Shown: positions 1-11,860 of the stretch, in pieces
Layout of the letters: each line of letters starts with the position of its first letter
Numbering within the stretch: the first letter of the stretch is position 1
Virus record (IMG/VR): IMGVR_UViG_2703718842_000002
Coordinates: 1-11,860 of that record
Strand: one strand, 5' to 3'
Length of the DNA: 11,860 nt
Source of the DNA: a virus
Lineage: Duplodnaviria > Heunggongvirae > Uroviricota > Caudoviricetes
Notes under the pieces: model-generated
Databases searched by the model: none
Told to the model about the DNA's origin: nothing
What the model saw: only the letters and a program-made list of their open reading frames with translations
Made by a program: the position numbers and the translations under genes

Positions 1-237
1 CGTGTTGAGGCCAACGCCCATAATGCGGGCTGTTGCCCGGCATCCAACGCCATTCATGGCCATATCAATGATTTTCTGGTGCGTACCGGGTTGAGAAGCG
101 GTGTAAGTGAACTGCAGTTGCCATGTTTTACGGCAGTGAGAGCAGAGATAGCGCTGATGTCCGGCGGTGCTTTTGCCGTTACGCACCACCCCGTCAGTAG
201 CTGAACAGGAGGGACAGCTGATAGAAACAGAAGCCAC
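1..237 (-). CDS. insA: IS1 InsA (transposition regulator / N-terminal part of the InsAB' transposase), 3'-partial in window
   Basis: Minus-strand frame beginning at the GTG whose reverse complement is 235-237 translates [79 protein letters not shown] with no stop before the window edge. This frame is missing from the supplied ORF track because it has no in-window stop. It contains the zinc-finger-like CxxC...CxxC pair of InsA. Confidence 0.85.
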
Positions 238-269
238 TGGAGCACCTCAAAAACACCATCATACACTAA

Positions 270-292
270 ATCAGTAAGTTGGCAGCATCACC
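270..292 (-). repeat. IS1 terminal inverted repeat (insA-proximal end)
   Basis: Window 270-292 atcagtaagttggcagcatcacc is the reverse complement of the ~23-bp IS1 terminal repeat GGTGATGCTGCCAACTTACTGAT. Confidence 0.8.
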
Positions 293-1484
293 GGATGCCT
301 GGCGAAATAACCAGGCAAATAAACCCAAAGCGCATAAAAAGACCGAAGCGGAAAAAACAGAAGATATTTATAAACGGCTGATTAAACAGCAAAAAGAACA
401 AATAGCACTGGCAGGGCAGAATACTGAACTGGCTAAGATGAAATATCAGGTCAGTCAGGGCGAATTATCAACCCTGTCAGAAGCGCAGAAAAAAACGCTT
501 TTGCAGAATGCAGCACTCATCGACCAGAAAAAGATTCGTGAGCAGCTTGCTGCGTATGAAAGCAGCCTGGCGGACAGTAATGCCAGTACCCGGGCGTCTA
601 ACGACGCGCAGTTACTGGGATATGGTGAAGGCTCACGGATGCGTGAACGACTCCAGGAAATGTGGAGTATCCGGCATGAGTTTGAGCAGAAAAATAACGA
701 GCTGCTGAGACAGTATCAGGCCGGAGAAATTGAAGAAGCCCTGTGGAAACAGGAGAAAGAACTGAATAAAAAATATCTGGAAGAGCGTCTCAGCGATCAG
801 CAGGATTATTATGCAAAGGCCGATGCTTTACGTAATAACTGGAATGCAGGACTCCAGGAGGGGCTGACCAACTGGGCAGACAGTGCCACCGATTATGCTT
901 CGCAGGCGGCAGATGCTGTCGTTTCCACTATGGACGGACTGGTATCAAATATTTCCGATGCACTGGCCGGAAATGTTGTGGACTGGAGAAACTGGGGGAG
1001 TTCAATTCTCCAGGAAGTTTCAAAAATTCTGATGAATGCGGCCATTGTTAACGGACTGAAGTCACTCTCCGGTGCCGGAGGGTGGCTTGGTACGGTCGGC
1101 GGATGGATTTCGGGGGCGGTGGCAAACGCAAAAGGTGGTGTTTACACATCAGCAAATCTGAGTGCTTACAGTAACACTATTGTGGATACACCGACGTATT
1201 TTGCTTTTGCGAAAGGTGCCGGGTTGATGGGCGAGGCCGGGCCTGAAGCAATCATGCCACTGACACGGGCAGCGGACGGCTCTCTTGGGGTCAGGGCCAT
1301 TGGAAATGTGAATGGTGGCGGTGGATTTGTTTATTCTCCCGTGTATCACATCAGCATTCAGAATCAAGGGAGCAATGGCGAGATAGATGCGCGCTCAGCC
1401 AGGGGACTGGTGGATCTGATCGACAGCAGGGTTGTGTCAATTATGCAGTCATCGCGTCGGGATGGAGGATTGTACAGTGCCTGA
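293..1484 (+). pseudogene. H: Tail tape-measure protein (lambda H-like), C-terminal ~397 codons, 5'-truncated by the IS1 insertion
   Basis: Track ORF 279-1484; its first 14 nt lie inside the IS1 inverted repeat and it uses a TTG directly after an in-frame TAA at 267-269, so the true N-terminus is absent. The translation has a tape-measure C-terminus (...TPTYFAFAKGAGLMGEAGPEAIMPLTRAADGSLGVRAIG...) and sits immediately upstream of M-L-K-I-J. Stop TGA at 1482-1484. Confidence 0.8.
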
Positions 1485-1818
1485 GCCTGAAGTTTTTAAC
1501 TGGATCCCCCGTGAGGGGATGGAGACGACACGAAAGCCATCAGTTATTACGGTAAAGTTTGGTGACGGATATGAACAGCGACGGGCTGGTGGCCTGAATG
1601 CGGATCTGAAAACGTTTAAACCGGTATTTCGTGTCACAGATGAATATTCCCGTGCCGCGCTGGACAGTTTTTTATCCCGTCATGCCGGGATTCGTGCTTT
1701 TTTGTGGCGTCCGCCAAAACACAACAGGACTGTCCGGGTTGTCTGCAGGGAGTGGAGCATTTCGGATAATGCCATGTATACCGATTTTAACTGTACCTTT
1801 GAAGAGGTCACTCACTGA
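1477..1818 (+). CDS. M: Minor tail protein M (lambda gpM-like)
   Basis: Translation ...EVFNWIPREGMETTRKPSVITVKFGDGYEQRRAGGLNADLKTF...AFLWRPP... aligns with lambda gpM (MKTFRWKVKPGMD...VRFGDGYSQRAPAGLNANLKTY...). Start chosen at GTG 1477, preceded by GGAGGA at 1464-1469 with 7-nt spacing. ATG 1462 and the track's TTG 1432 are in-frame alternatives. Overlaps the H stop and ends in an ATGA overlap with L. Confidence 0.85.
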   Translation: MPEPEVFNWIPREGMETTRKPSVITVKFGDGYEQRRAGGLNADLKTFKPVFRVTDEYSRAALDSFLSRHAGIRAFLWRPPKHNRTVRVVCREWSISDNAMYTDFNCTFEEVTH

Positions 1819-2516
1819 TGCAGGATATACAGCAGGAAACACTCAATGAGTGCACTAAAACGGAGCAATCCGCGCTGGTCGTGCTCTGGGAAATTGATCT
1901 GACAGAGGTCGGCGGAGAACGTTATTTTTTCTGTAATGAGCAGAACGAAAAAGGTGAGTCGGTCACCTGGCAGGGGCGACAGTATCAGGCGTACCCTATT
2001 CAGGGAAGCGGATTTGAGATGAACGGCAAAGGAGCCAGTGCAAGACCAACGCTGAAAGTCTCTAACCTGCACGGCATGGTCACCGGCATAGCGGAAGACC
2101 TGCAGAGTCTGGTCGGCGGAACGGTGGTCAGGCGTAAGGTTTACGCCCGTTTTCTGGATGCGGTGAACTTCGTCAACGGAAACAGTGACGCCGATCCGGA
2201 GCAGGAGGTAATCAGCCGCTGGCGCATTGAGCAGTGCAGCGAACTGAGCGCGGTCAGTGCCTCCTTTGTACTGTCCACGCCGACGGAAACGGACGGCGCT
2301 GTTTTTCCGGGCCGCATCATGCTGGCTAATACCTGCACCTGGACCTATCGCGGTGATGAGTGCGGTTATCACGGTCCGGCGGTCGCGGATGAATATGATC
2401 AGCCGACGTCCGATATCACGAAGGATAAATGCAGCAAATGCCTGAGTGGCTGTAAGTTTCGCAATAACGTCGGCAACTTTGGCGGCTTCCTTTCCATTAA
2501 CAAACTTTCGCAGTAA
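1818..2516 (+). CDS. L: Minor tail protein L (lambda gpL-like), tail-tip protein with a C-terminal cysteine cluster
   Basis: 232-aa ORF, the same length as lambda gpL, with a near-identical N-terminus (MQDIQQETLNECTKTEQSALVVLWEIDLTEVGGERYFFCNEQNEKGE...). C-terminal Cys residues (CTWTYRGDECGYHG...DKCSKCLSGCKF) match the known Fe-S-binding cluster of gpL. Its ATG overlaps the TGA of M. Confidence 0.92.
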   Translation: MQDIQQETLNECTKTEQSALVVLWEIDLTEVGGERYFFCNEQNEKGESVTWQGRQYQAYPIQGSGFEMNGKGASARPTLKVSNLHGMVTGIAEDLQSLVGGTVVRRKVYARFLDAVNFVNGNSDADPEQEVISRWRIEQCSELSAVSASFVLSTPTETDGAVFPGRIMLANTCTWTYRGDECGYHGPAVADEYDQPTSDITKDKCSKCLSGCKFRNNVGNFGGFLSINKLSQ

Positions 2517-2521
2517 ATCCC

Positions 2522-3265
2522 ATGACAGAGACAGAATCAGCGATTCTGGCGCACGCCCGGCGATGTGCGCCAGCGGAGTCGTGCGGCTTCGTGGTGAGAA
2601 CGCCGGAAGGGGAAAGATATTTTCCCTGCGTGAATATCTCCGGTGAGCCGGAGGCGTATTTCCGGATGGCTCCGGAGGACTGGCTGCGGGCAGAAATGCA
2701 GGGTGAGATTGTGGCGCTGGTCCACAGTCACCCCGGTGCTCTGCCCTGGCTGAGTGAGGCCGACCGGCGGCTGCAGGTGCAGAGTGATTTGCCGTGGTGG
2801 CTGGTCTGCCGGGGGGCGATTCACAAGTTCCGCTGTGTGCCACATCTTACCGGGCGGCGCTTTGAGCACGGGGTGACGGACTGTTACACGCTGTTCCGGG
2901 ATGCTTACCATCTGGCGGGAATTGAGATGCCTGATTTTCATCGTGAGGATGACTGGTGGCGTCACGGTCAGAATCTCTATCTGGATAATATGGAGGCAAC
3001 GGGGCTGTATCAGGTGCCGTTGTCAGCGGCGCAGCCGGGCGATGTGCTGCTGTGCTGTTTTGGTTCATCGGTGCCGAATCATGCCGCTATTTACTGCGGC
3101 GACGGCGAGCTGCTGCACCATATTCCTGAACAGCTGAGCAAACGAGAGAGGTATACCGACAAATGGCAGCGACGCACACACTCCCTCTGGCGTCACCGGG
3201 CATGGCACGCATCTGCCTTTACGGGGATTTGCAACGATTTGGCCGCCGCATCGACCTTCGTGTGA
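2522..3265 (+). CDS. K: Tail assembly protein K (lambda gpK-like); MPN/JAMM-type domain plus NlpC/P60-type cysteine peptidase domain
   Basis: 247-aa ORF beginning 6 nt after the L stop. JAMM-like motif E...HSHPGALPWLSEAD (H-x-H-x7-S-x2-D) lies at about 2722-2763. C-terminal half carries an NlpC/P60-like Cys/His pair (GVTDCYTLFRDAYH...NHAAIYCGDG). The true start could be an internal Met (e.g. M49). The 3' end overlaps I by 103 nt in another frame. Confidence 0.85.
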   Translation: MTETESAILAHARRCAPAESCGFVVRTPEGERYFPCVNISGEPEAYFRMAPEDWLRAEMQGEIVALVHSHPGALPWLSEADRRLQVQSDLPWWLVCRGAIHKFRCVPHLTGRRFEHGVTDCYTLFRDAYHLAGIEMPDFHREDDWWRHGQNLYLDNMEATGLYQVPLSAAQPGDVLLCCFGSSVPNHAAIYCGDGELLHHIPEQLSKRERYTDKWQRRTHSLWRHRAWHASAFTGICNDLAAASTFV

Positions 3266-3810
3266 AAACGGGGGCCGAAGCCATCCGGGCGCTGGCCATG
3301 CAGATCCCGGCGTTTCGTCAGAAACTGAATGAGGGCTGGTATCAGGTGCGCATTGCCGGGCGTGATGCAGGCGAAAACGAATTATCAGCCCGTCTTAATG
3401 AGCCGCTGAAAAATGGTGCCGTGATCCACATCGTTCCGCGTCTTGCGGGAGCAAAAAGTGGCGGTGTGTTTCAGGCGGTGCTGGGGGCGGCGCTGATTGC
3501 GGTGGCATGGTGGAACCCTGTGGGCTGGCTGGGTGCCGCGGCTGTATCGGGCATGTATGCGGCAGGGGCCAGTATGATCCTGGGCGGAGTGGCGCAGATG
3601 CTGGCACCGAAAGCCAGGACGCCCACGGCAGCAAGTACAGATAACGGCAAACAGAACACCTATTTCTCGTCACTGGATAACATGGTTGCCCAGGGCAATG
3701 TTCTGCCTGTTCTGTACGGGGAAATGCGCGTGGGGTCACGCGTGGTTTCTCAGGAGATCAGCACGGCAGACGAAGGGGACGGTGGTCAGGTTGTGGTGAT
3801 TGGTCGCTGA
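3163..3810 (+). CDS. I: Tail assembly protein I (lambda gpI-like)
   Basis: Translation MAATHTLPLASPGMARICLYGDLQRFGRRIDLRVKTGAEAIRALA...NGKQNTYFSSLDNMVAQGNVLPVLYGEMRVGSRVVSQEISTADEGDGGQVVVIGR closely matches lambda gpI at both termini. The Gly/Ala-rich hydrophobic middle is also typical. Confidence 0.88.
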   Translation: MAATHTLPLASPGMARICLYGDLQRFGRRIDLRVKTGAEAIRALAMQIPAFRQKLNEGWYQVRIAGRDAGENELSARLNEPLKNGAVIHIVPRLAGAKSGGVFQAVLGAALIAVAWWNPVGWLGAAAVSGMYAAGASMILGGVAQMLAPKARTPTAASTDNGKQNTYFSSLDNMVAQGNVLPVLYGEMRVGSRVVSQEISTADEGDGGQVVVIGR

Positions 3811-3828
3811 TGCAAAATGTTTTATGTG

Positions 3829-3856
3829 AAACCGCCTCCGGGCGGTTTTGTCGTTT
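3829..3856 (+). terminator. Stem-loop with a U-rich tail between I and J (terminator-like hairpin or RNA-stabilising structure)
   Basis: aaaccgcc (3829-3836), loop tccg, ggcggttt (3841-3848), then tgtcgttt. An 8-bp perfect stem. Because J lies downstream in the same operon this is more likely a partial terminator or processing/stability element than a full stop. Confidence 0.35.
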
Positions 3857-3870
3857 ATGGAGCGTGAGGA

Positions 3871-6800
3871 ATGGGTAAAGGCAGCAGTAAGGGGCATACC
3901 CCGCGCGAAGCAAAGGACAACCTGAAGTCCACGCAGTTGCTGAGTGTGATCGATGCCATCAGCGAAGGGCCGGTTGAAGGTCCGGTGGATGGATTAAAAA
4001 GCGTGCTGCTGAACAGTACACCGGTGCTGGACAGTGAGGGGAATACCAATATCTCCGGCGTCACGGTGGTGTTCCGGGCCGGTGAGCAGGAGCAGACACC
4101 GCCGGAGGGATTTGAATCCTCCGGCTCCGAGACGGTGCTGGGTACGGAAGTGAAATACGACACGCCGATCACCCGGACCATCACGTCGGCAAACATTGAC
4201 CGACTGCGCTTTACCTTCGGCGTGCAGGCACTGGTGGAAACCACCTCAAAGGGGGACAGGAATCCGTCGGAAGTCCGCCTGCTGGTTCAGATCCAGCGTA
4301 ATGGCGGCTGGGTGACGGAAAAAGACATCACCATTAAGGGCAAAACCACCTCGCAGTATCTGGCCTCGGTGGTGGTGGGTAACCTGCCGCCGCGCCCGTT
4401 CAATATCCGGATGCGCAGGATGACGCCGGACAGCACCACAGACCAGCTGCAGAACAAAACGCTCTGGTCGTCATACACCGAAATCATCGATGTGAAACAG
4501 GGCTACCCGAACACGGCACTGGTCGGCGTGCAGGTGGATTCGGAGCAGTTCGGCAGCCAGCAGGTGAGCCGTAATTATCATCTGCGCGGGCGCATTCTGC
4601 AGGTGCCGTCGAACTATAACCCGCAGACGCGGCAATACAGCGGTATCTGGGACGGAACGTTTAAACCGGCATACAGCAACAACATGGCCTGGTGTCTGTG
4701 GGATATGCTGACCCATCCGCGCTACGGCATGGGGAAACGTCTTGGTGCGGCGGATGTGGATAAATGGGCGCTGTATGTCATCGGCCAGTACTGCGACCAG
4801 TCAGTGCCGGACGGCTTTGGCGGCACGGAGCCGCGCATCACCTGTAATGCGTACCTGACCACACAGCGCAAGGCGTGGGATGTGCTCAGTGATTTCTGCT
4901 CGGCGATGCGCTGTATGCCGGTATGGAACGGGCAGACGCTGACGTTCGTGCAGGACCGACCATCAGATAAGGTGTGGACCTATAACCGCAGTAATGTGGT
5001 GATGCCGGATGATGGTGCGCCGTTCCGCTACAGCTTCAGCGCCCTGAAGGACCGCCATAATGCCGTTGAGGTGAACTGGATTGACCCGGACAACGGCTGG
5101 GAGACGGCGACAGAGCTTGTTGAAGATACGCAGGCCATTGCCCGTTACGGTCGTAATGTCACGAAGATGGATGCCTTTGGCTGTACCTGCCGGGGGCAGG
5201 CACACCGCGCCGGGCTGTGGCTGATTAAAACGGAGCTGCTGGAGACGCAGACCGTGGATTTCAGCGTGGGTGCCGAAGGGCTTCGCCATGTACCGGGCGA
5301 TGTCATTGAAATCTGTGATGATGACTATGCGGGGATCAGCACCGGCGGGCGCGTGCTGGCGGTGAACAGCCAGACCCGGACGCTGACGCTCGACCGTGAA
5401 ATCACGCTGCCATCCTCCGGCACCACGCTGATAAGCCTGGTTGACGGAAGTGGCAATCCGGTCAGCGTGGAGGTCCAGTCCGTCACCGACGGCGTGAAGG
5501 TGAAAGTGAGCCGGGTTCCTGACGGCGTTGCCGGATACAGCGTGTGGGGGCTGAAGCTGCCGACGCTGCGCCAGCGCCTGTTCCGCTGTGTGAGTATCCG
5601 TGAGAACGACGACGGCACGTATGCCATCACTGCCGTGCAGCATGTACCGGAGAAAGAAGCCATCGTGGATAACGGGGCGCACTTTGACGGTGACCAGAGC
5701 GGCACGGTGAATGGTGTCACGCCGCCAGCAGTGCAGCATCTGACCGCCGAAGTCACCGCAGACAGCGGGGAATATCAGGTGCTGGCGCGATGGGACACGC
5801 CGAAGGTGGTGAAGGGCGTGAGCTTTATGCTTCGCCTGACCGTGGCAGCGGATGACGGCAGTGAGCGGCTGGTCAGCACGGCCAGGACGACGGAAACCAC
5901 TTACCGCTTCACACAACTGGCTCTGGGGAACTACAGGCTGACAGTCCGGGCAGTAAATGCATGGGGACAGCAGGGCGATCCGGCGTCGGTATCGTTCCGG
6001 ATTGCCGCACCGGCAGCGCCGTCGCGGATTGAGCTGACGCCGGGCTATTTTCAGATAACCGCCACGCCGCATCTTGCCGTTTATGATCCGACGGTACAGT
6101 TTGAGTTCTGGTTCTCGGAAACGCGGATTACCGATATCAGGCAGGTTGAAACCACAGCCCGCTACCTTGGTGCGGGGCTGTACTGGATAGCCGCCAGTAT
6201 CAATATCAAACCGGGCCATGATTATTACTTTTATATCCGCAGTGTGAACACCGTTGGCAAATCGGCATTCGTGGAGGCTGTTGGTCAGCCGAGTGATGAC
6301 GCATCCGGCTATCTGGATTTTTTCAAAGGCGAGATAGGGAAAACCCATCTGGCTCAGGAGCTGTGGACGCAGATTGATAACGGTCAGCTTGCGCCTGACC
6401 TGGCTGAAATCAGGACGTCCATTACGGATGTCAGCAATGAAATCACACAGACCGTCAATAAGAAACTGGAAGACCAGAGTGCGGCAATTCAGCAGATACA
6501 GAAGGTTCAGGTTGATACAAATAATAACCTGAACAGCATGTGGGCTGTGAAGCTGCAGCAGATGCAGGACGGACGCCTTTATATCGCGGGTATTGGTGCC
6601 GGTATTGAGAACACCCCTGACGGCATGCAGAGTCAGGTGCTGCTGGCGGCGGACAGGATTGCGATGGTTAATCCTGCGAATGGCAACACAAAACCGATGT
6701 TTGTTGGTCAGGGCGATCAGATATTCATGAACGACGTGTTCCTGAAACGCCTGACGGCTCCCACCATTACCAGCGGTGGAAATCCACCGGCATTTTCCCT

Positions 6801-7353
6801 GACACCGGACGGGCGACTGACGGCGAAAAATGCGGATATCAGTGGCAGTGTGAATGCGAACGCCGGGACGCTCAACAATGTCACGATTAATGAGAACTGT
6901 CAGATTAAGGGGAAACTGTCAGCCAATCAGATTGAAGGCGATATTGTCAAAACGGTCAGCAAGTCTTTCCCCCGCACGAACAGTTATGCCAGTGGCACCA
7001 TCACGGTAAGAATCAGTGATGATCAGAAATTTGACCGGCAGGTCATGATACCGCCAGTGTTATTCCGCGGTGGTAAGCATGAGAATTTCAACAGTAATAA
7101 CCAACAGTCATACTGGTATTCAACCTGCCGGTTAAGAGTGACCCGCAATGGTCAGGAGATTTTTAATCAGTCCACGACGGATGCTCAGGGCGTATTTTCC
7201 TCCGTTATAGATATGCCTGCCGGACAGGGGACGCTGACACTGACATTCACCGTATCTTCATCAGGAGCGAATAACTGGACACCAACAACCAGTATCAGCG
7301 ATCTGCTGGTTGTGGTGATGAAAAAATCCACAGCAGGTATCAGTATCAGCTGA
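3871..7353 (+). CDS. J: Host-specificity / central tail-fibre (tail tip) protein J (lambda gpJ-like)
   Basis: 1160-aa ORF. N-terminal ~800 aa are near-identical to lambda J as I recall it ([34 protein letters not shown]...). GAGGA precedes the ATG. Stop TGA at 7351-7353. An internal patch and the C-terminal ~150 aa are diverged and lower in G+C (see findings). Confidence 0.95.
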
Positions 7354-7370
7354 ATTTTATAACCCAGAAC

Positions 7371-7397
7371 GGGCGTCAGAAATGACGCCTTTTTTAT
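7371..7397 (+). terminator. Rho-independent terminator-like hairpin downstream of J
   Basis: ggcgtca (7372-7378), loop gaaa, tgacgcc (7383-7389), followed immediately by tttttt (7390-7395). Confidence 0.6.
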
Positions 7398-7419
7398 TGC
7401 AGAAAAGCGAGAGGTAATT

Positions 7420-8019
7420 ATGCGTAAAGTTTGTGCAGCAATTTTGTCCGCAGCCATCTGTCTGGCCGTATCCGGTGCGCCTGCATGGGCGTCTGAACAT
7501 CAGTCCACGCTGAGCGCGGGGTATCTTCATGCCCGGACGAACGTTTCCGGCAGCGATGATCTGAACGGGATTAACGTGAAATACCGTTATGAGTTTACGG
7601 ACACGCTGGGAATGGTGACGTCATTCAGCTATGCAGGAGACAAGAATCGCCAGCTTACCCGTTACAGCGATACCCGCTGGCATGAAGATTCCGCGCGTAA
7701 CCGCTGGTTCAGCGTGATGGCGGGGCCGTCTGTGCGCGTGAATGAATGGTTCAGCGCGTATGCGATGGCGGGTGTGGCTTACAGCCGCGTGTCGACTTTC
7801 TCCGGGGATTATCTCCGCGTAACTGACAACAAGGGGAAAATGCACGATGTGCTGACCGGAAGTGATGACGGTCGCCACAGCAACACGTCTCTGGCGTGGG
7901 GGGCTGGCGTGCAGTTTAACCCGACCGAATCCGTGGCCATTGATATTGCTTATGAAGGCTCCGGCAGTGGCGACTGGCGCACTGACGGTTTCATCGTGGG
8001 GGTCGGTTATAAATTCTGA
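7420..8019 (+). CDS. lom: Lom-family outer-membrane beta-barrel protein (Ail/Lom/PagC/OmpX family), moron gene
   Basis: 199 aa. N-terminal signal peptide [24 protein letters not shown] followed by S. C-terminus ...[29 protein letters not shown] essentially matches lambda Lom. Conserved [14 protein letters not shown] and SAYAMAGVA strands are present. RBS GAGAGG lies 5-6 nt upstream of the ATG. Located between J and stf as in lambda. Confidence 0.9.
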
Positions 8020-8045
8020 TTAGCCAGGTAACACAGTGTTATGAC

Positions 8046-8073
8046 AGCCCGCCGGTTAAGGCGGGCTTTTTTG
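8046..8073 (+). terminator. Rho-independent terminator-like hairpin downstream of lom
   Basis: agcccgcc (8046-8053), loop ggttaa, ggcgggct (8060-8067), then ttttt (8068-8072). Confidence 0.6.
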
Positions 8074-8083
8074 TGGGGTGAAT

Positions 8084-11000
8084 ATGGCAGTAAAGATTTC
8101 AGGTGTACTGAAAGACGGCACAGGAAAACCGGTACAGAACTGCACAATCCAGCTGAAAGCAAAACGTAACAGCACCACGGTGGTGGCGAACACGGTGGCC
8201 TCAGAAAATCCGGATGAAGCCGGGCGTTACAGCATGGACGTTGAGTACGGTCAGTACAGCGTTATTCTGTTGGTGGAAGGCTTCCCGCCATCGCATGCCG
8301 GGACCATCACCGTGTATGAAGACTCACAACCGGGTACGCTGAATGATTTTCTCGGTGCCATGACGGAGGATGATGTCCGTCCGGAGGCACTGCGCCGTTT
8401 TGAACTGATGGTGGAAGAGGTGGCGCGTAACGCGTCCGCGGTGGCACAGAACACGGCAGCCGCGAAGAAGTCAGCCAGCGATGCCAGCACATCAGCCCGT
8501 GAGGCGGCAACCCATGCGACTGATGCTGCAGGCTCAGCACGCGCAGCCAGCACGTCAGCCGGACAGGCCGCGTCGTCGGCTCAGTCAGCATCTTCCAGCG
8601 CAGGAACAGCATCAACAAAGGCCACTGAAGCATCAAAAAGTGCTGCCGCCGCAGAGTCTTCAAAAAGCGCGGCAGCCACCAGTGCCGGTGCAGCGAAAAC
8701 GTCAGAAACGAATGCCGCAGCATCACAAAAATCTGCGGCCACTTCTGCATCCACCGCGACCACGAAAGCGTCAGAAGCTGCCACCTCAGCCCGGGATGCG
8801 TCGGCTTCAAAAGTGGCGGCAAAATCATCAGAAACGAGCGCAGCCTCGAGCGCCGGCATTGCAGCTTCCTCGGCAACGGCGGCAGGAAATTCCGCGAAGG
8901 CCGCAAAAACGTCTGAGACGAATGCGGATAACAGCGCACAGGCGGCAGCAGACTCACAAACTGCATCGGCAAACTCCGCGACAGCAGCCAAAAAATCAGA
9001 AACCAACGCGAAAAATAGTGAGGCAGCAGCAAAGGTCAGCGAAACCAACGCTAAAGCGTCAGAGAACAAGGCGAAAGAATATCTCGACAAGGTCGGGGGA
9101 CTCGTCAGCCCGATGACGCAATACGATTGGCCTGTTGTTACTGCTAGTGAGTCTCTTTACATCAAGATCGCGAAACTTTCCGATCCTGGAACCAGCAGAA
9201 GTCATGTAACGCTAATGGTTACTAACGCTGGTAACTACGGCTCCCCTTACGGAAACATTGACTTTATCGAGATCTCGGCGCGCGGTCTGCCTTCTTTGCT
9301 TAGTGCGGATAATGTTTCTCGTCATCTGAGTATACGCCGCTTAGGGTCAACCGGGCTGACCGATAACAACCAGATGCGTTACGGCCTGGTTAAAGGTGAC
9401 GGCTTTATTGAGGTTTGGGCATTCCAGGGTGCGTTTATTAACGACGCAAAGGTTGCGGTGCTGGCGCAGACGGCACGCACGGAATTATACATTCCAGACG
9501 GATTTGTTAAGCAAACCGCCGCGCCTTCTGGATATATTGAAGGCAACGTTGTAAGGATTTACGACCAGGTAAACAAGCCGACTAAAGCAGATTTGGGTCT
9601 TTGTAATGCTATGCTTACAGGCGCTTTCGGTCTTGGCGGTAGCGGGATAGCAACAAACGGCAAGATGAGCGATGTAGAGATCTTAAAAGCTCTGCGTGAC
9701 AAAGGTGGTCATTTCTGGCGCGGTGATAAGCCGACCGGAAGCACGGCGACCATTTATAGCCACGGTTCTGGTATATTCTCGCGGTGCGGCGATACGTGGT
9801 CAGCGATCAATATCGACTACTCAACCGCGAAGATTAAGATCTATGCCGGCAACGATGCCCGGTTTAACAACGGGACTTTTAGCGTCAATGAGCTATACGG
9901 CTCGGCAAACAAGCCGTCGAAATCGGATGTTGGACTTGGCAACGTAACGAACGATGCGCAGGTAAAAAAAACCGGCGATACAATGACCGGTGACTTGACA
10001 ATCAAAAAAGGTACACCGTCAGTCTTCCTGCGGGCAGACAGTGGAGTCACCGCTTTGCGGTTTTATACTGGCGATAACACAGAGCGCGGCATAATCTATG
10101 CTGGTCCTAACACTGATTCGCTTGGCGAAGTTCGCATCAGGGCAAAGACAGCAGGGGGGACATCAGGAGGGGATCTTGTTGTTCGTCACGACGGGAGGGT
10201 TGAAGTCCGTGATCTCACAGTAGCGTATAAAATTAAAAGCAGAACGATTGAGATTGCAAATACCGACACTGACTCATCGGCAACTACGCTCAGCATCTAT
10301 GGAGTACAGCACACGCCATTGGTTTTAACGCGTTCTGGTTCTTCTGAAAATGTGTCCATTGGGTTTAAGTTAGACAATGTGAACCCAAAGTATCTTGGAA
10401 TTGATACTAATGGGGATCTGGCTTTTGGTGAGAGTCCTGATCAGAAACAAAACAGCAAATTGATCACGCAAGCGAAACTCGACAAGGGATTAACGATTGG
10501 TGGTCAACTGGCTTTCAAAGGTACGACAGCGTTTTCAGCCGCTGCTACGTTCAGTGCCGGGATAGCAGGAGCCATCGAGCCGGAAGCCATTGACGGCCGG
10601 ACTATTGATTTAAACGACTTGATTATTGCTAATACAGAAGCTGGATCCGTTAAATACTATCAATGCAAAACTGTCGCAGGTGGTGCAAATATTACCAATA
10701 AGCCTGACGGCGTAAGCGGTAACTTTTTGGTTCGTGTAGAGTCGATTCGTAAGACTACGGGATCAGATTATGCGAACATGCAAACGCTGATTAACAGCGA
10801 CACAAAACGTATATACGTTCGCTTTGTTGTTAATGGAAACTGGACAGCGTGGAGTCAGGTTGTTGTTTCCGGATGGAATCAGGATGTAACCGTCAGGTCG
10901 TTAACCTCGACGACTCCATCAAAATTAGGTGGCGGGCGGATTGATGTGCTTGGAAGTACGTCAGATTATGGCAGCATGAATTGTACCGTTCGTGGTGTTG

Positions 11001-11860
11001 ATAGCACTGGAACCAATTCGGCGTGGTCGGTAGGCACATCAGAAAGCACAGGCAAAATGTTGTTCCTGAAAAACCACAGAAGCAGCGCTCAAGTGCTGTT
11101 AAATGGCGATGATGGAGCGGTTCAACTACTAAGTGGCACTGTTAACGGTGCTACAGCGCAGGCGCTAACCATCAACAAAGATGAGGTTAACTCAACTGCC
11201 GATTTAGTAATTAGAAAACAAACAGGGACTGGCAATCGTTTTGCTTTACTTAATTCAGGTAATTCAGAACTACCAGTTAGTATCAGGGTGTGGGGTTCCA
11301 GTACTCGACAAAACGTTTTTGAGGTTGGCACGTCTGCTGCGTATCTGTTTTATGCGCAAAAAACAACAGACGGGCAAAACCTTACTGTAAACGGAAGTGT
11401 TAACTGCACCACACTGAATCAGTCATCAGACCGCAGACTGAAAGAAAATATCGAGATTATCGATAACGCGACTGACGCAATCCGCAAAATTAATGGATAC
11501 ACATACACGCTCAAGGAGAATGGGGCACATTGCGCCGGGGTTATAGCCCAGGAAGTTGAAGAGGCCATCCCGGAGGCCGTTGGTTCATTCATCCATTACG
11601 GTGAAGAGTTGCAAGGTCCGACCGTTGACGGCAACGAGCTACGCGAAGAAACGCGCTATCTTAATGTTGACTACGCCGCCGTGACGGGCTTACTTGTTCA
11701 GTTCGCCCGTGAAACAGATGATCGCGTTACCGCGCTGGAAGAGGAAAACACAACGCTACGTCAAAATCTGGCAACAGCAGACACCCGGATCAGCACTCTG
11801 GAAAATCAGGTAAGCGAACTGGTTGCACTTGTCCGGCAGTTAACAGGAAGCGAACATTGA
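8084..11860 (+). CDS. stf: Side tail fibre protein: lambda Stf-like N-terminal anchor + Ala/Ser-rich repeat stalk + divergent distal fibre module + C-terminal intramolecular-chaperone (peptidase S74-type) domain
   Basis: Track ORF 8078-11860 begins at a GTG; ATG at 8084 gives MAVKISGVLKDGTGKPVQNCTIQLKAKRNSTTVVANTV...SMDVEYGQYSVIL..., which matches the lambda Stf N-terminus, and GGGG sits 6 nt upstream. Stop TGA at 11858-11860 is the last codon in the window. Confidence 0.9.
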   Translation: MAVKISGVLKDGTGKPVQNCTIQLKAKRNSTTVVANTVASENPDEAGRYSMDVEYGQYSVILLVEGFPPSHAGTITVYEDSQPGTLNDFLGAMTEDDVRPEALRRFELMVEEVARNASAVAQNTAAAKKSASDASTSAREAATHATDAAGSARAASTSAGQAASSAQSASSSAGTASTKATEASKSAAAAESSKSAAATSAGAAKTSETNAAASQKSAATSASTATTKASEAATSARDASASKVAAKSSETSAASSAGIAASSATAAGNSAKAAKTSETNADNSAQAAADSQTASANSATAAKKSETNAKNSEAAAKVSETNAKASENKAKEYLDKVGGLVSPMTQYDWPVVTASESLYIKIAKLSDPGTSRSHVTLMVTNAGNYGSPYGNIDFIEISARGLPSLLSADNVSRHLSIRRLGSTGLTDNNQMRYGLVKGDGFIEVWAFQGAFINDAKVAVLAQTARTELYIPDGFVKQTAAPSGYIEGNVVRIYDQVNKPTKADLGLCNAMLTGAFGLGGSGIATNGKMSDVEILKALRDKGGHFWRGDKPTGSTATIYSHGSGIFSRCGDTWSAINIDYSTAKIKIYAGNDARFNNGTFSVNELYGSANKPSKSDVGLGNVTNDAQVKKTGDTMTGDLTIKKGTPSVFLRADSGVTALRFYTGDNTERGIIYAGPNTDSLGEVRIRAKTAGGTSGGDLVVRHDGRVEVRDLTVAYKIKSRTIEIANTDTDSSATTLSIYGVQHTPLVLTRSGSSENVSIGFKLDNVNPKYLGIDTNGDLAFGESPDQKQNSKLITQAKLDKGLTIGGQLAFKGTTAFSAAATFSAGIAGAIEPEAIDGRTIDLNDLIIANTEAGSVKYYQCKTVAGGANITNKPDGVSGNFLVRVESIRKTTGSDYANMQTLINSDTKRIYVRFVVNGNWTAWSQVVVSGWNQDVTVRSLTSTTPSKLGGGRIDVLGSTSDYGSMNCTVRGVDSTGTNSAWSVGTSESTGKMLFLKNHRSSAQVLLNGDDGAVQLLSGTVNGATAQALTINKDEVNSTADLVIRKQTGTGNRFALLNSGNSELPVSIRVWGSSTRQNVFEVGTSAAYLFYAQKTTDGQNLTVNGSVNCTTLNQSSDRRLKENIEIIDNATDAIRKINGYTYTLKENGAHCAGVIAQEVEEAIPEAVGSFIHYGEELQGPTVDGNELREETRYLNVDYAAVTGLLVQFARETDDRVTALEEENTTLRQNLATADTRISTLENQVSELVALVRQLTGSEH
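8430..9090 (+). repeat. Low-complexity Ala/Ser/Thr-rich coding repeats within stf (degenerate K-x-SETNA-type units)
   Basis: Translation is dominated by A/S/T/K with recurring KTSETNAAASQKSAATSAS, KTSETNADNS, KKSETNAKNSE, KVSETNAKASENKAKE. G+C is very high (about 65% by hand count at 8461-8520). This bias also produces long spurious ORFs on both strands. Confidence 0.55.
11426..11857 (+). other. C-terminal intramolecular chaperone / auto-proteolysis domain of the tail fibre (endosialidase-chaperone type, peptidase S74-like)
   Basis: Domain starts at the motif S-D-R-R-L-K (Ser codon 11426-11428, Lys codon 11441-11443), matching the S-D-x-x-x-K Ser/Lys dyad signature. The following ~140 aa (ENIEIIDNATDAIRKINGYTYTLKENG...YLNVDYAAVTGLLVQFARE...LEEENTTLRQNLATADTRISTLENQVSELVALVRQL) end in a heptad-like coiled-coil segment. 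Confidence 0.7.

Follow-up and report, generated by a model that had tools for sequence, protein, structure and literature searches.

A single IS1 element very probably split the tape-measure gene of a lambdoid prophage of Escherichia coli in two, very recently, leaving neither piece able to nucleate a tail. The window (the whole stretch of DNA that was analysed, 11,860 nucleotides) comprises bases 1-11,860 of LOOI01000027.1 (L006), a 70,610-bp draft contig of assembly GCA_001575475.1. Its right end at position 11860 is the stop codon of the side tail fibre gene stf, and its left part consists of one end of IS1 followed directly by the 3′ part of the tape-measure gene, a homologue of lambda gene H.

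IS1 and the remnant of the tape-measure gene

The features at the left end of the window are as follows.

1-292, minus strand: IS1 left end of IS1A/IS1B type, 292 bp, truncated at position 1, where the contig ends
1-237, minus strand: insA from its GTG start at 237, the first 79 codons up to the window edge (translation and Pfam)
258-285, minus strand: promoter-like site in or beside the inverted repeat, pointing inward to insA (weak consensus match, 9/12)
270-292, minus strand: IS1 terminal inverted repeat IRL, 23 bp (plus strand atcagtaagttggcagcatcacc, minus strand GGTGATGCTGCCAACTTACTGAT; direct reading)
279-1484, plus strand: hybrid orf of 401 aa with a TTG start within IS1, as reported by gene callers (predicted, from the list of orfs)
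293-300 (293-301 if 9 bp), plus strand: right-hand copy of the target-site duplication, GGATGCCT (predicted, from protein look-ups)
293-1484, plus strand: C-terminal tape-measure remnant, consisting of the third base of codon 679, codons 680-1075 and the stop codon

IS1 copies in thousands of E. coli records match the whole of positions 1-292 at 100% identity, and a copy with at least 80% cover of this segment is present in 4,960 of 5,426 complete E. coli genomes; a chance match to IS1 is excluded. The segment aligns to one part (L017 701-992) of a complete 768-bp IS1A (L017 225-992), of which the inverted repeat at 270-292 is the tip (L017 970-992), and IS1 copies elsewhere that share these 292 bp are 768 bp long with a right inverted repeat (IRR) that begins GGTAATGACTCC. 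The part of insA that adjoins IRL encodes the zinc ribbon (PF03811 Zn_ribbon_InsA, E 1.2e-21) and the C-terminal helix-turn-helix domain (PF12759 HTH_Tnp_IS1, E 1e-23), both above the Pfam cut-offs, an arrangement that marks membership of the IS1 family. An earlier note, made from the sequence alone, had described an IS1 left end with an inverted repeat at 270-292 and a leftward insA, and each of these is present. The promoter-like site at 258-285 sits where the insA promoter is described; a consensus scan of the junction, which is a weak method, found no outward plus-strand promoter able to express the tape-measure remnant.

Comparison with relatives in which the gene is intact places the start of phage DNA at position 293 and the junction between IS1 and the tape-measure gene at 292/293, as the earlier note had it. 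Position 293 corresponds to nucleotide 2037 of the intact 3,228-nt (1,075-codon) gene, the third base of codon 679, and the remnant at 293-1484 is the 3′ 1,192 nt of that gene at 100% identity (L002, L004, L005 and L007). The whole native codons that are left number 396 (680-1075), in agreement with the count of about 397 C-terminal codons given previously, and a TAA at 267-269 inside IS1 is, on direct reading, in frame with the downstream reading frame as had been claimed. From 294 to 1481 the remnant matches PF09718 Tape_meas_lam_C (E 9e-15, 55 bits versus a cut-off of 23), a feature of the gpH family; the single long frame with N-terminal TMP_3 and HK97_TLTM regions that also belongs to that family is missing, the window having codons 680-1075 only. 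Positions 293-1484 are a gene remnant and not a functional member of the gpH family, and the right label for the orf at 279/293-1484 is tape-measure pseudogene fragment.

BLAST alignments of intact phages begin at window position 288, not 293, because four bases of the IS1 tip (tcac) are equal to the phage bases left of the target. This coincidence (window 288-292 versus L001 6001-6005) could shift junction calls by 5 bp.

The junction in other assemblies and the left side of the element

Since position 1 of the window is base 1 of the contig, leftward extension is impossible on LOOI01000027.1. The contig stops within IS1, a multicopy repeat of the sort that short reads fail to resolve, and its left edge is thus an assembly break rather than a biological boundary. 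The junction lies 292 bp from the contig end, where mis-joins are commonest, and the exact right junction is absent from the 5,426 complete E. coli genomes (BLAST, best cover 81%) as well as from GTDB species representatives and JGI metagenomes. The position near the contig end and the absence from complete genomes would suit a chimera, in which an IS1 read was joined to phage reads while the gene is intact in the real genome. Such a chimera is nevertheless scarcely credible, for the identical junction, with 0 mismatches to the window, was found on five other contigs (L012-L016) from independent samples, namely three ENA metagenome assemblies and two Logan run assemblies that include MEGAHIT, SPAdes-style NODE and Logan contigs, and matching N-terminal fragments of the protein end at the same site. 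One of these junction-bearing contigs was seen in 10 samples, and exact protein look-up found the 401-aa hybrid orf called on all five. The recurrence of the junction across assemblers and samples indicates that it is not an assembly artefact, and the contrary case raised in the earlier note, a tape-measure gene complete and in frame across the junction, is not what these five further contigs contain.

The lineage was seen in approximately 16 sample records from several continents, and the junction TCACC/GGATGCCTGG is usable as a marker of the E. coli sub-lineage that carries it. A search of the literature for the assembly accession GCA_001575475.1 found nothing relevant. Exact look-up of the 348-aa version of the remnant with an ATG start returned two contigs that merely start there and an unrelated nonsense allele, none of which spans IS1.

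Where a window opens at an assembly break within an insertion sequence, that window alone cannot tell simple insertion apart from rearrangement or from a composite element, and each of the five other junction contigs also breaks within IS1. The left junction was approached through its protein products, which were predicted for target-site duplications of 8, 9 and 10 bp and then looked up by exact sequence. IS1 makes target duplications of 8 or 9 bp (PMC12903888). An 8-bp duplication (GGATGCCT) followed by the IS1 right end GGTAATG... is predicted to read ..GCC TGG TAA and to yield a product of 682 residues, whereas a 9-bp duplication (GGATGCCTG) would yield 688 residues ending in ..DAWVMTPTY, and a 10-bp duplication 708 residues. 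The left junction would be expected to read ...CTGGATGCCT(G) followed by GGTAATGACTCC, its flank being ...AACTCACTGGATGCCT then GGTAATGACTCCAAC if the duplication is 8 bp, or ...GGATGCCTG then GGTAATGACTCCAAC if it is 9 bp.

The N-terminal fragment H[1..682] (P0001) is present on four contigs, the longest of them 117,020 bp, and belongs to a protein cluster whose representative is full-length; a 117,014-bp contig ends in a partial protein, H[1..681] (P0046). Native-sequence control lengths of 680, 683, 684 and 685 residues were absent from the protein collection by exact look-up, as were the 708-aa product of a 10-bp duplication, the 688-aa product of a 9-bp duplication and its truncated forms of 683-687 aa. 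The 9-bp duplication GGATGCCTG is less favoured on account of these last absences, and a duplication of 8 bp (GGATGCCT) appears likely from the look-ups, a call that is weakened by the label 'partial' given to the 682-residue protein by NCBI, since that copy may end at a contig edge and not at a stop codon. Of the 9-bp duplication proposed in the earlier note (ggatgcctg, 293-301), at least eight base pairs are implied, and the ninth is disfavoured.

To encode H[1..682], phage sequence is needed up to at least nucleotide 2044 of the gene, while the C-terminal side starts at nucleotide 2037, giving an overlap of at least 8 nt (2037-2044); the 681-aa partial fragment alone would give an overlap of nucleotides 2037-2043 only (7 nt). 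An overlap of 8 nt or more is the signature of simple transposition, not of deletion. It bears on the proposal that IS1 instead borders a deletion, inversion or other rearrangement that it mediated, with the N-terminal two thirds of the tape-measure frame, and possibly the genes for the head as well, absent or located elsewhere. It is true that the contig ends inside IS1 with nothing to its left visible, that IS1 promotes adjacent deletions and rearrangements (PMC12903888) and that the closest relatives contain at least 40 IS1 matches per chromosome, but a rearrangement is highly improbable given that the N-terminal fragments, carried on 117-kb contigs, not only share at least 8 bp with the C-terminal side but end exactly at the target, and that their listed sources (NCBI, Logan and ENA) match those of the 401-aa junction orf.

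The same N-terminal fragment is presumably present in this genome and would adjoin the same IS1. The earlier note had expected the N-terminal half of the gene to the left of the element; a fragment ending at the target was indeed found in public assemblies. The predicted left junction has no match in JGI metagenomes, a result that is uninformative given that these metagenomes lack the right junction as well.

A composite insert is another conceivable source of the same right-hand boundary: two directly repeated IS1 elements flanking a cargo, as in Tn9, with the window showing the right-hand IS1. Its interior would have gone unobserved, because none of the assemblies found passes through IS1 from either side. 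Composites are far rarer than single IS1 insertions, however; no cargo was seen, and the orientation of the ends fits a single element equally well, with IRL on the right and IRR implied on the left by the TGG/TAA stop, so that a composite is most unlikely. A single inserted element is the reading followed below.

Relatives, downstream genes and the age of the insertion

The genes that follow the remnant in the window are as follows.

1462-1818, plus strand: minor tail protein M homologue, intact (open frame; Pfam Phage_min_tail, E 1.2e-31)
1818-2516, plus strand: minor tail protein L homologue, intact (open frame; Pfam Phage_tail_L, E 2.4e-99)
2522-3265, plus strand: tail tip assembly protein K homologue, intact (open frame; Pfam JAB and NlpC/P60)
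3163-3810, plus strand: tail assembly protein I homologue, intact (open frame; Pfam Lambda_tail_I, E 3.6e-24)
3871-7353, plus strand: tip attachment protein J homologue, intact (open frame; six GpJ domain families)
7420-8019, plus strand: Lom/Ail outer-membrane protein gene, intact (open frame; Pfam Ail_Lom, E 2.2e-119)
8084-11860, plus strand: side tail fibre gene stf, 1,258 codons, open (Pfam phage_tail_N and Peptidase_S74)

The M, L, K, I, J, lom and stf genes are all open with the expected domains, which bears out their earlier description as intact, and the exact J protein was found on 14 contigs. The tape-measure protein of the intact relatives has TMP_3, Phage_HK97_TLTM and Tape_meas_lam_C regions, and its gene stands in the order chaperone, T, tape measure, M, L, K, I, J. 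The gene order of the gpH family is thus found in two parts, M-L-K-I-J following the remnant in the window and the chaperone and T genes preceding the intact gene in the relatives, whose shared part is 100% identical.

The uninterrupted homologous prophage with which the earlier note had proposed a comparison is available in two strains of the same lineage (L002 and L004), in which the 1,075-codon tape-measure gene is intact. Between these strains and the contig there are 0 mismatches over 7,791 nt from the remnant through lom, and 0 mismatches over 5,493 nt of flank, made up of 1,460 nt past stf and 4,033 nt of potB-potA-pepT-roxA; the sole differences across 17 kb are 15 substitutions in stf. 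Ecol_AZ147 (CP018995) has the same prophage tail region, with 58 differences in the chromosomal flank. The identity to intact strains of the same lineage indicates that the insertion is very recent and occurred within one lineage, and so supports the recent insertion that had been offered as one explanation for the intact downstream genes. The chromosomes of the closest relatives (hits H3-H12, genomes of approximately 4.7 Mb) have at least 40 IS1 matches each, from which IS1 is abundant and presumably active in the lineage.

Thirteen of the 15 stf substitutions are within 470 bp of the N-terminal part of the gene (window 8119-8590), the others being at 8859 and 9863; the cluster has the look of a patch recombined in from a paralogous tail-fibre gene, or of paralogues wrongly assembled. 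The annotation of stf is also in conflict: the contig's own gene calls include the last 800 codons only (L006 9458-11860), and in the stf of the same length in Ecol_AZ147 (CP018995 2067659-2071435) RefSeq splits the frame into an N-terminal pseudogene and an S74-peptidase protein. To the right of the window (L006 11861-13320; L018 2432-3611), the tail-fibre assembly gene consists of short fragments in all relatives, and these flank an oppositely oriented gene for a class I SAM methyltransferase, beside a DinI fragment. Owing to the fragmentation of the tail-fibre assembly gene, the side fibres may already be non-functional even where the tape-measure gene is intact.

A related allele of the tape-measure gene (L019 7820-11047, Logan SRR4046421), which differs by 45 substitutions, has GGA changed to TGA at codon 664; there the gene was inactivated separately, 15 codons away from the point at which IS1 lies here.

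The intact prophage of Ecol_AZ147 occupies approximately 42 kb between potB and potC (L018, CP018995 2066431-2108312) and encodes an integrase, an excisionase, an exonuclease gene, dicB, repressor-like genes, an antiterminator, lysis genes, iss, an HK97-type head and a lambda-type tail, along with lom, hokD and iraM; its intact tape-measure gene lies at 2078035-2081262 of CP018995, on the complementary strand.

Consequences for the prophage and comparison with known systems

In the proposed event, IS1 would have transposed into codons 679-682 of the H homologue of a lambdoid prophage of approximately 42 kb, in the orientation that places insA antisense to the phage late operon. Two pieces would result: the N-terminal 682 residues, probably ending at a TAA contributed by the right end of IS1 (..GCC TGG/TAA), and a promoterless, startless C-terminal remnant of 396 codons. 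In lambda, gpH forms an oligomer inside the tail tube and sets the length of the tube; gpI holds its C-terminal helix in the tip, and tail polymerisation is started by the tape measure together with chaperones (PMC10721106). Because the tape measure must be one chain, anchored in the tip by its C-terminus and templating the tube by its length, neither of the two pieces would be able to nucleate a tail. Tail assembly would be lost unless another prophage supplies H; failing that, induction of the prophage would be expected to give DNA-filled heads and no infectious particles.

Late transcription under Q antitermination tends to pass through terminators. With such read-through, polarity on the genes from M to J may be modest, and the main lesion would be the split protein. 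Predictions of completeness or induction should treat tail assembly as defective in the prophage of this lineage.

The iss, lom, hokD, dicB and iraM genes of the Ecol_AZ147 prophage could favour the keeping of a defective prophage. If the disruption were kept by selection rather than being neutral decay, the host would keep such cargo without releasing infectious phage, the cargo being lom on this contig and iss, hokD, dicB and iraM by analogy with the prophage of the intact relative. Retention of this kind, or alternatively a role of IS1 as one arm of a cargo-carrying composite parked in the prophage, is very unlikely. An IS1 hit in a structural gene of a prophage is a routine and well-known form of prophage inactivation, with nothing new in it, and its significance goes little beyond annotation.

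The element itself does not differ from known IS1 (IS1A/IS1B) in the part that is visible, which is the left 38% of the element up to the point where the contig ends: the 292 bp are 100% identical, the 23-bp IRL and the InsA zinc-ribbon and helix-turn-helix domains are present, and the implied duplication of 8-9 bp would fit that of the family. The tape-measure gene shares with lambda gpH and its HK97 and other lambdoid homologues the Tape_meas_lam_C region in the remnant. In the intact relatives it also has TMP_3 and Phage_HK97_TLTM regions and, as in lambda, a place between the G/T chaperone genes and M-L-K-I-J. Lambda gpH has 853 residues, compared with 1,075 in the intact homologue, and here the gene is split by IS1 at codons 679-682.

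The prophage of Ecol_AZ147 is 100% identical over window positions 293-8118 and has a full lambdoid gene set, but its tape-measure gene is uninterrupted. The same difference separates the present prophage from the closest deposited phage, Escherichia phage vB_EcoS-640R1 (ON470612.1), which has 96% cover and 96.3% identity over window positions 293-8080 and likewise an uninterrupted tape-measure gene.

When a resident lambdoid prophage decays, the classic first step is that one of its late or structural genes is inactivated by an insertion sequence. Among the cryptic lambdoid prophages of E. coli disrupted in this way, examples are IS5 in lomR of the Rac prophage of K-12 and IS629 in prophages of O157. 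The present case is of the same kind; it differs in the insertion sequence, in the gene affected and in its very early stage, with no further lesions in the window.
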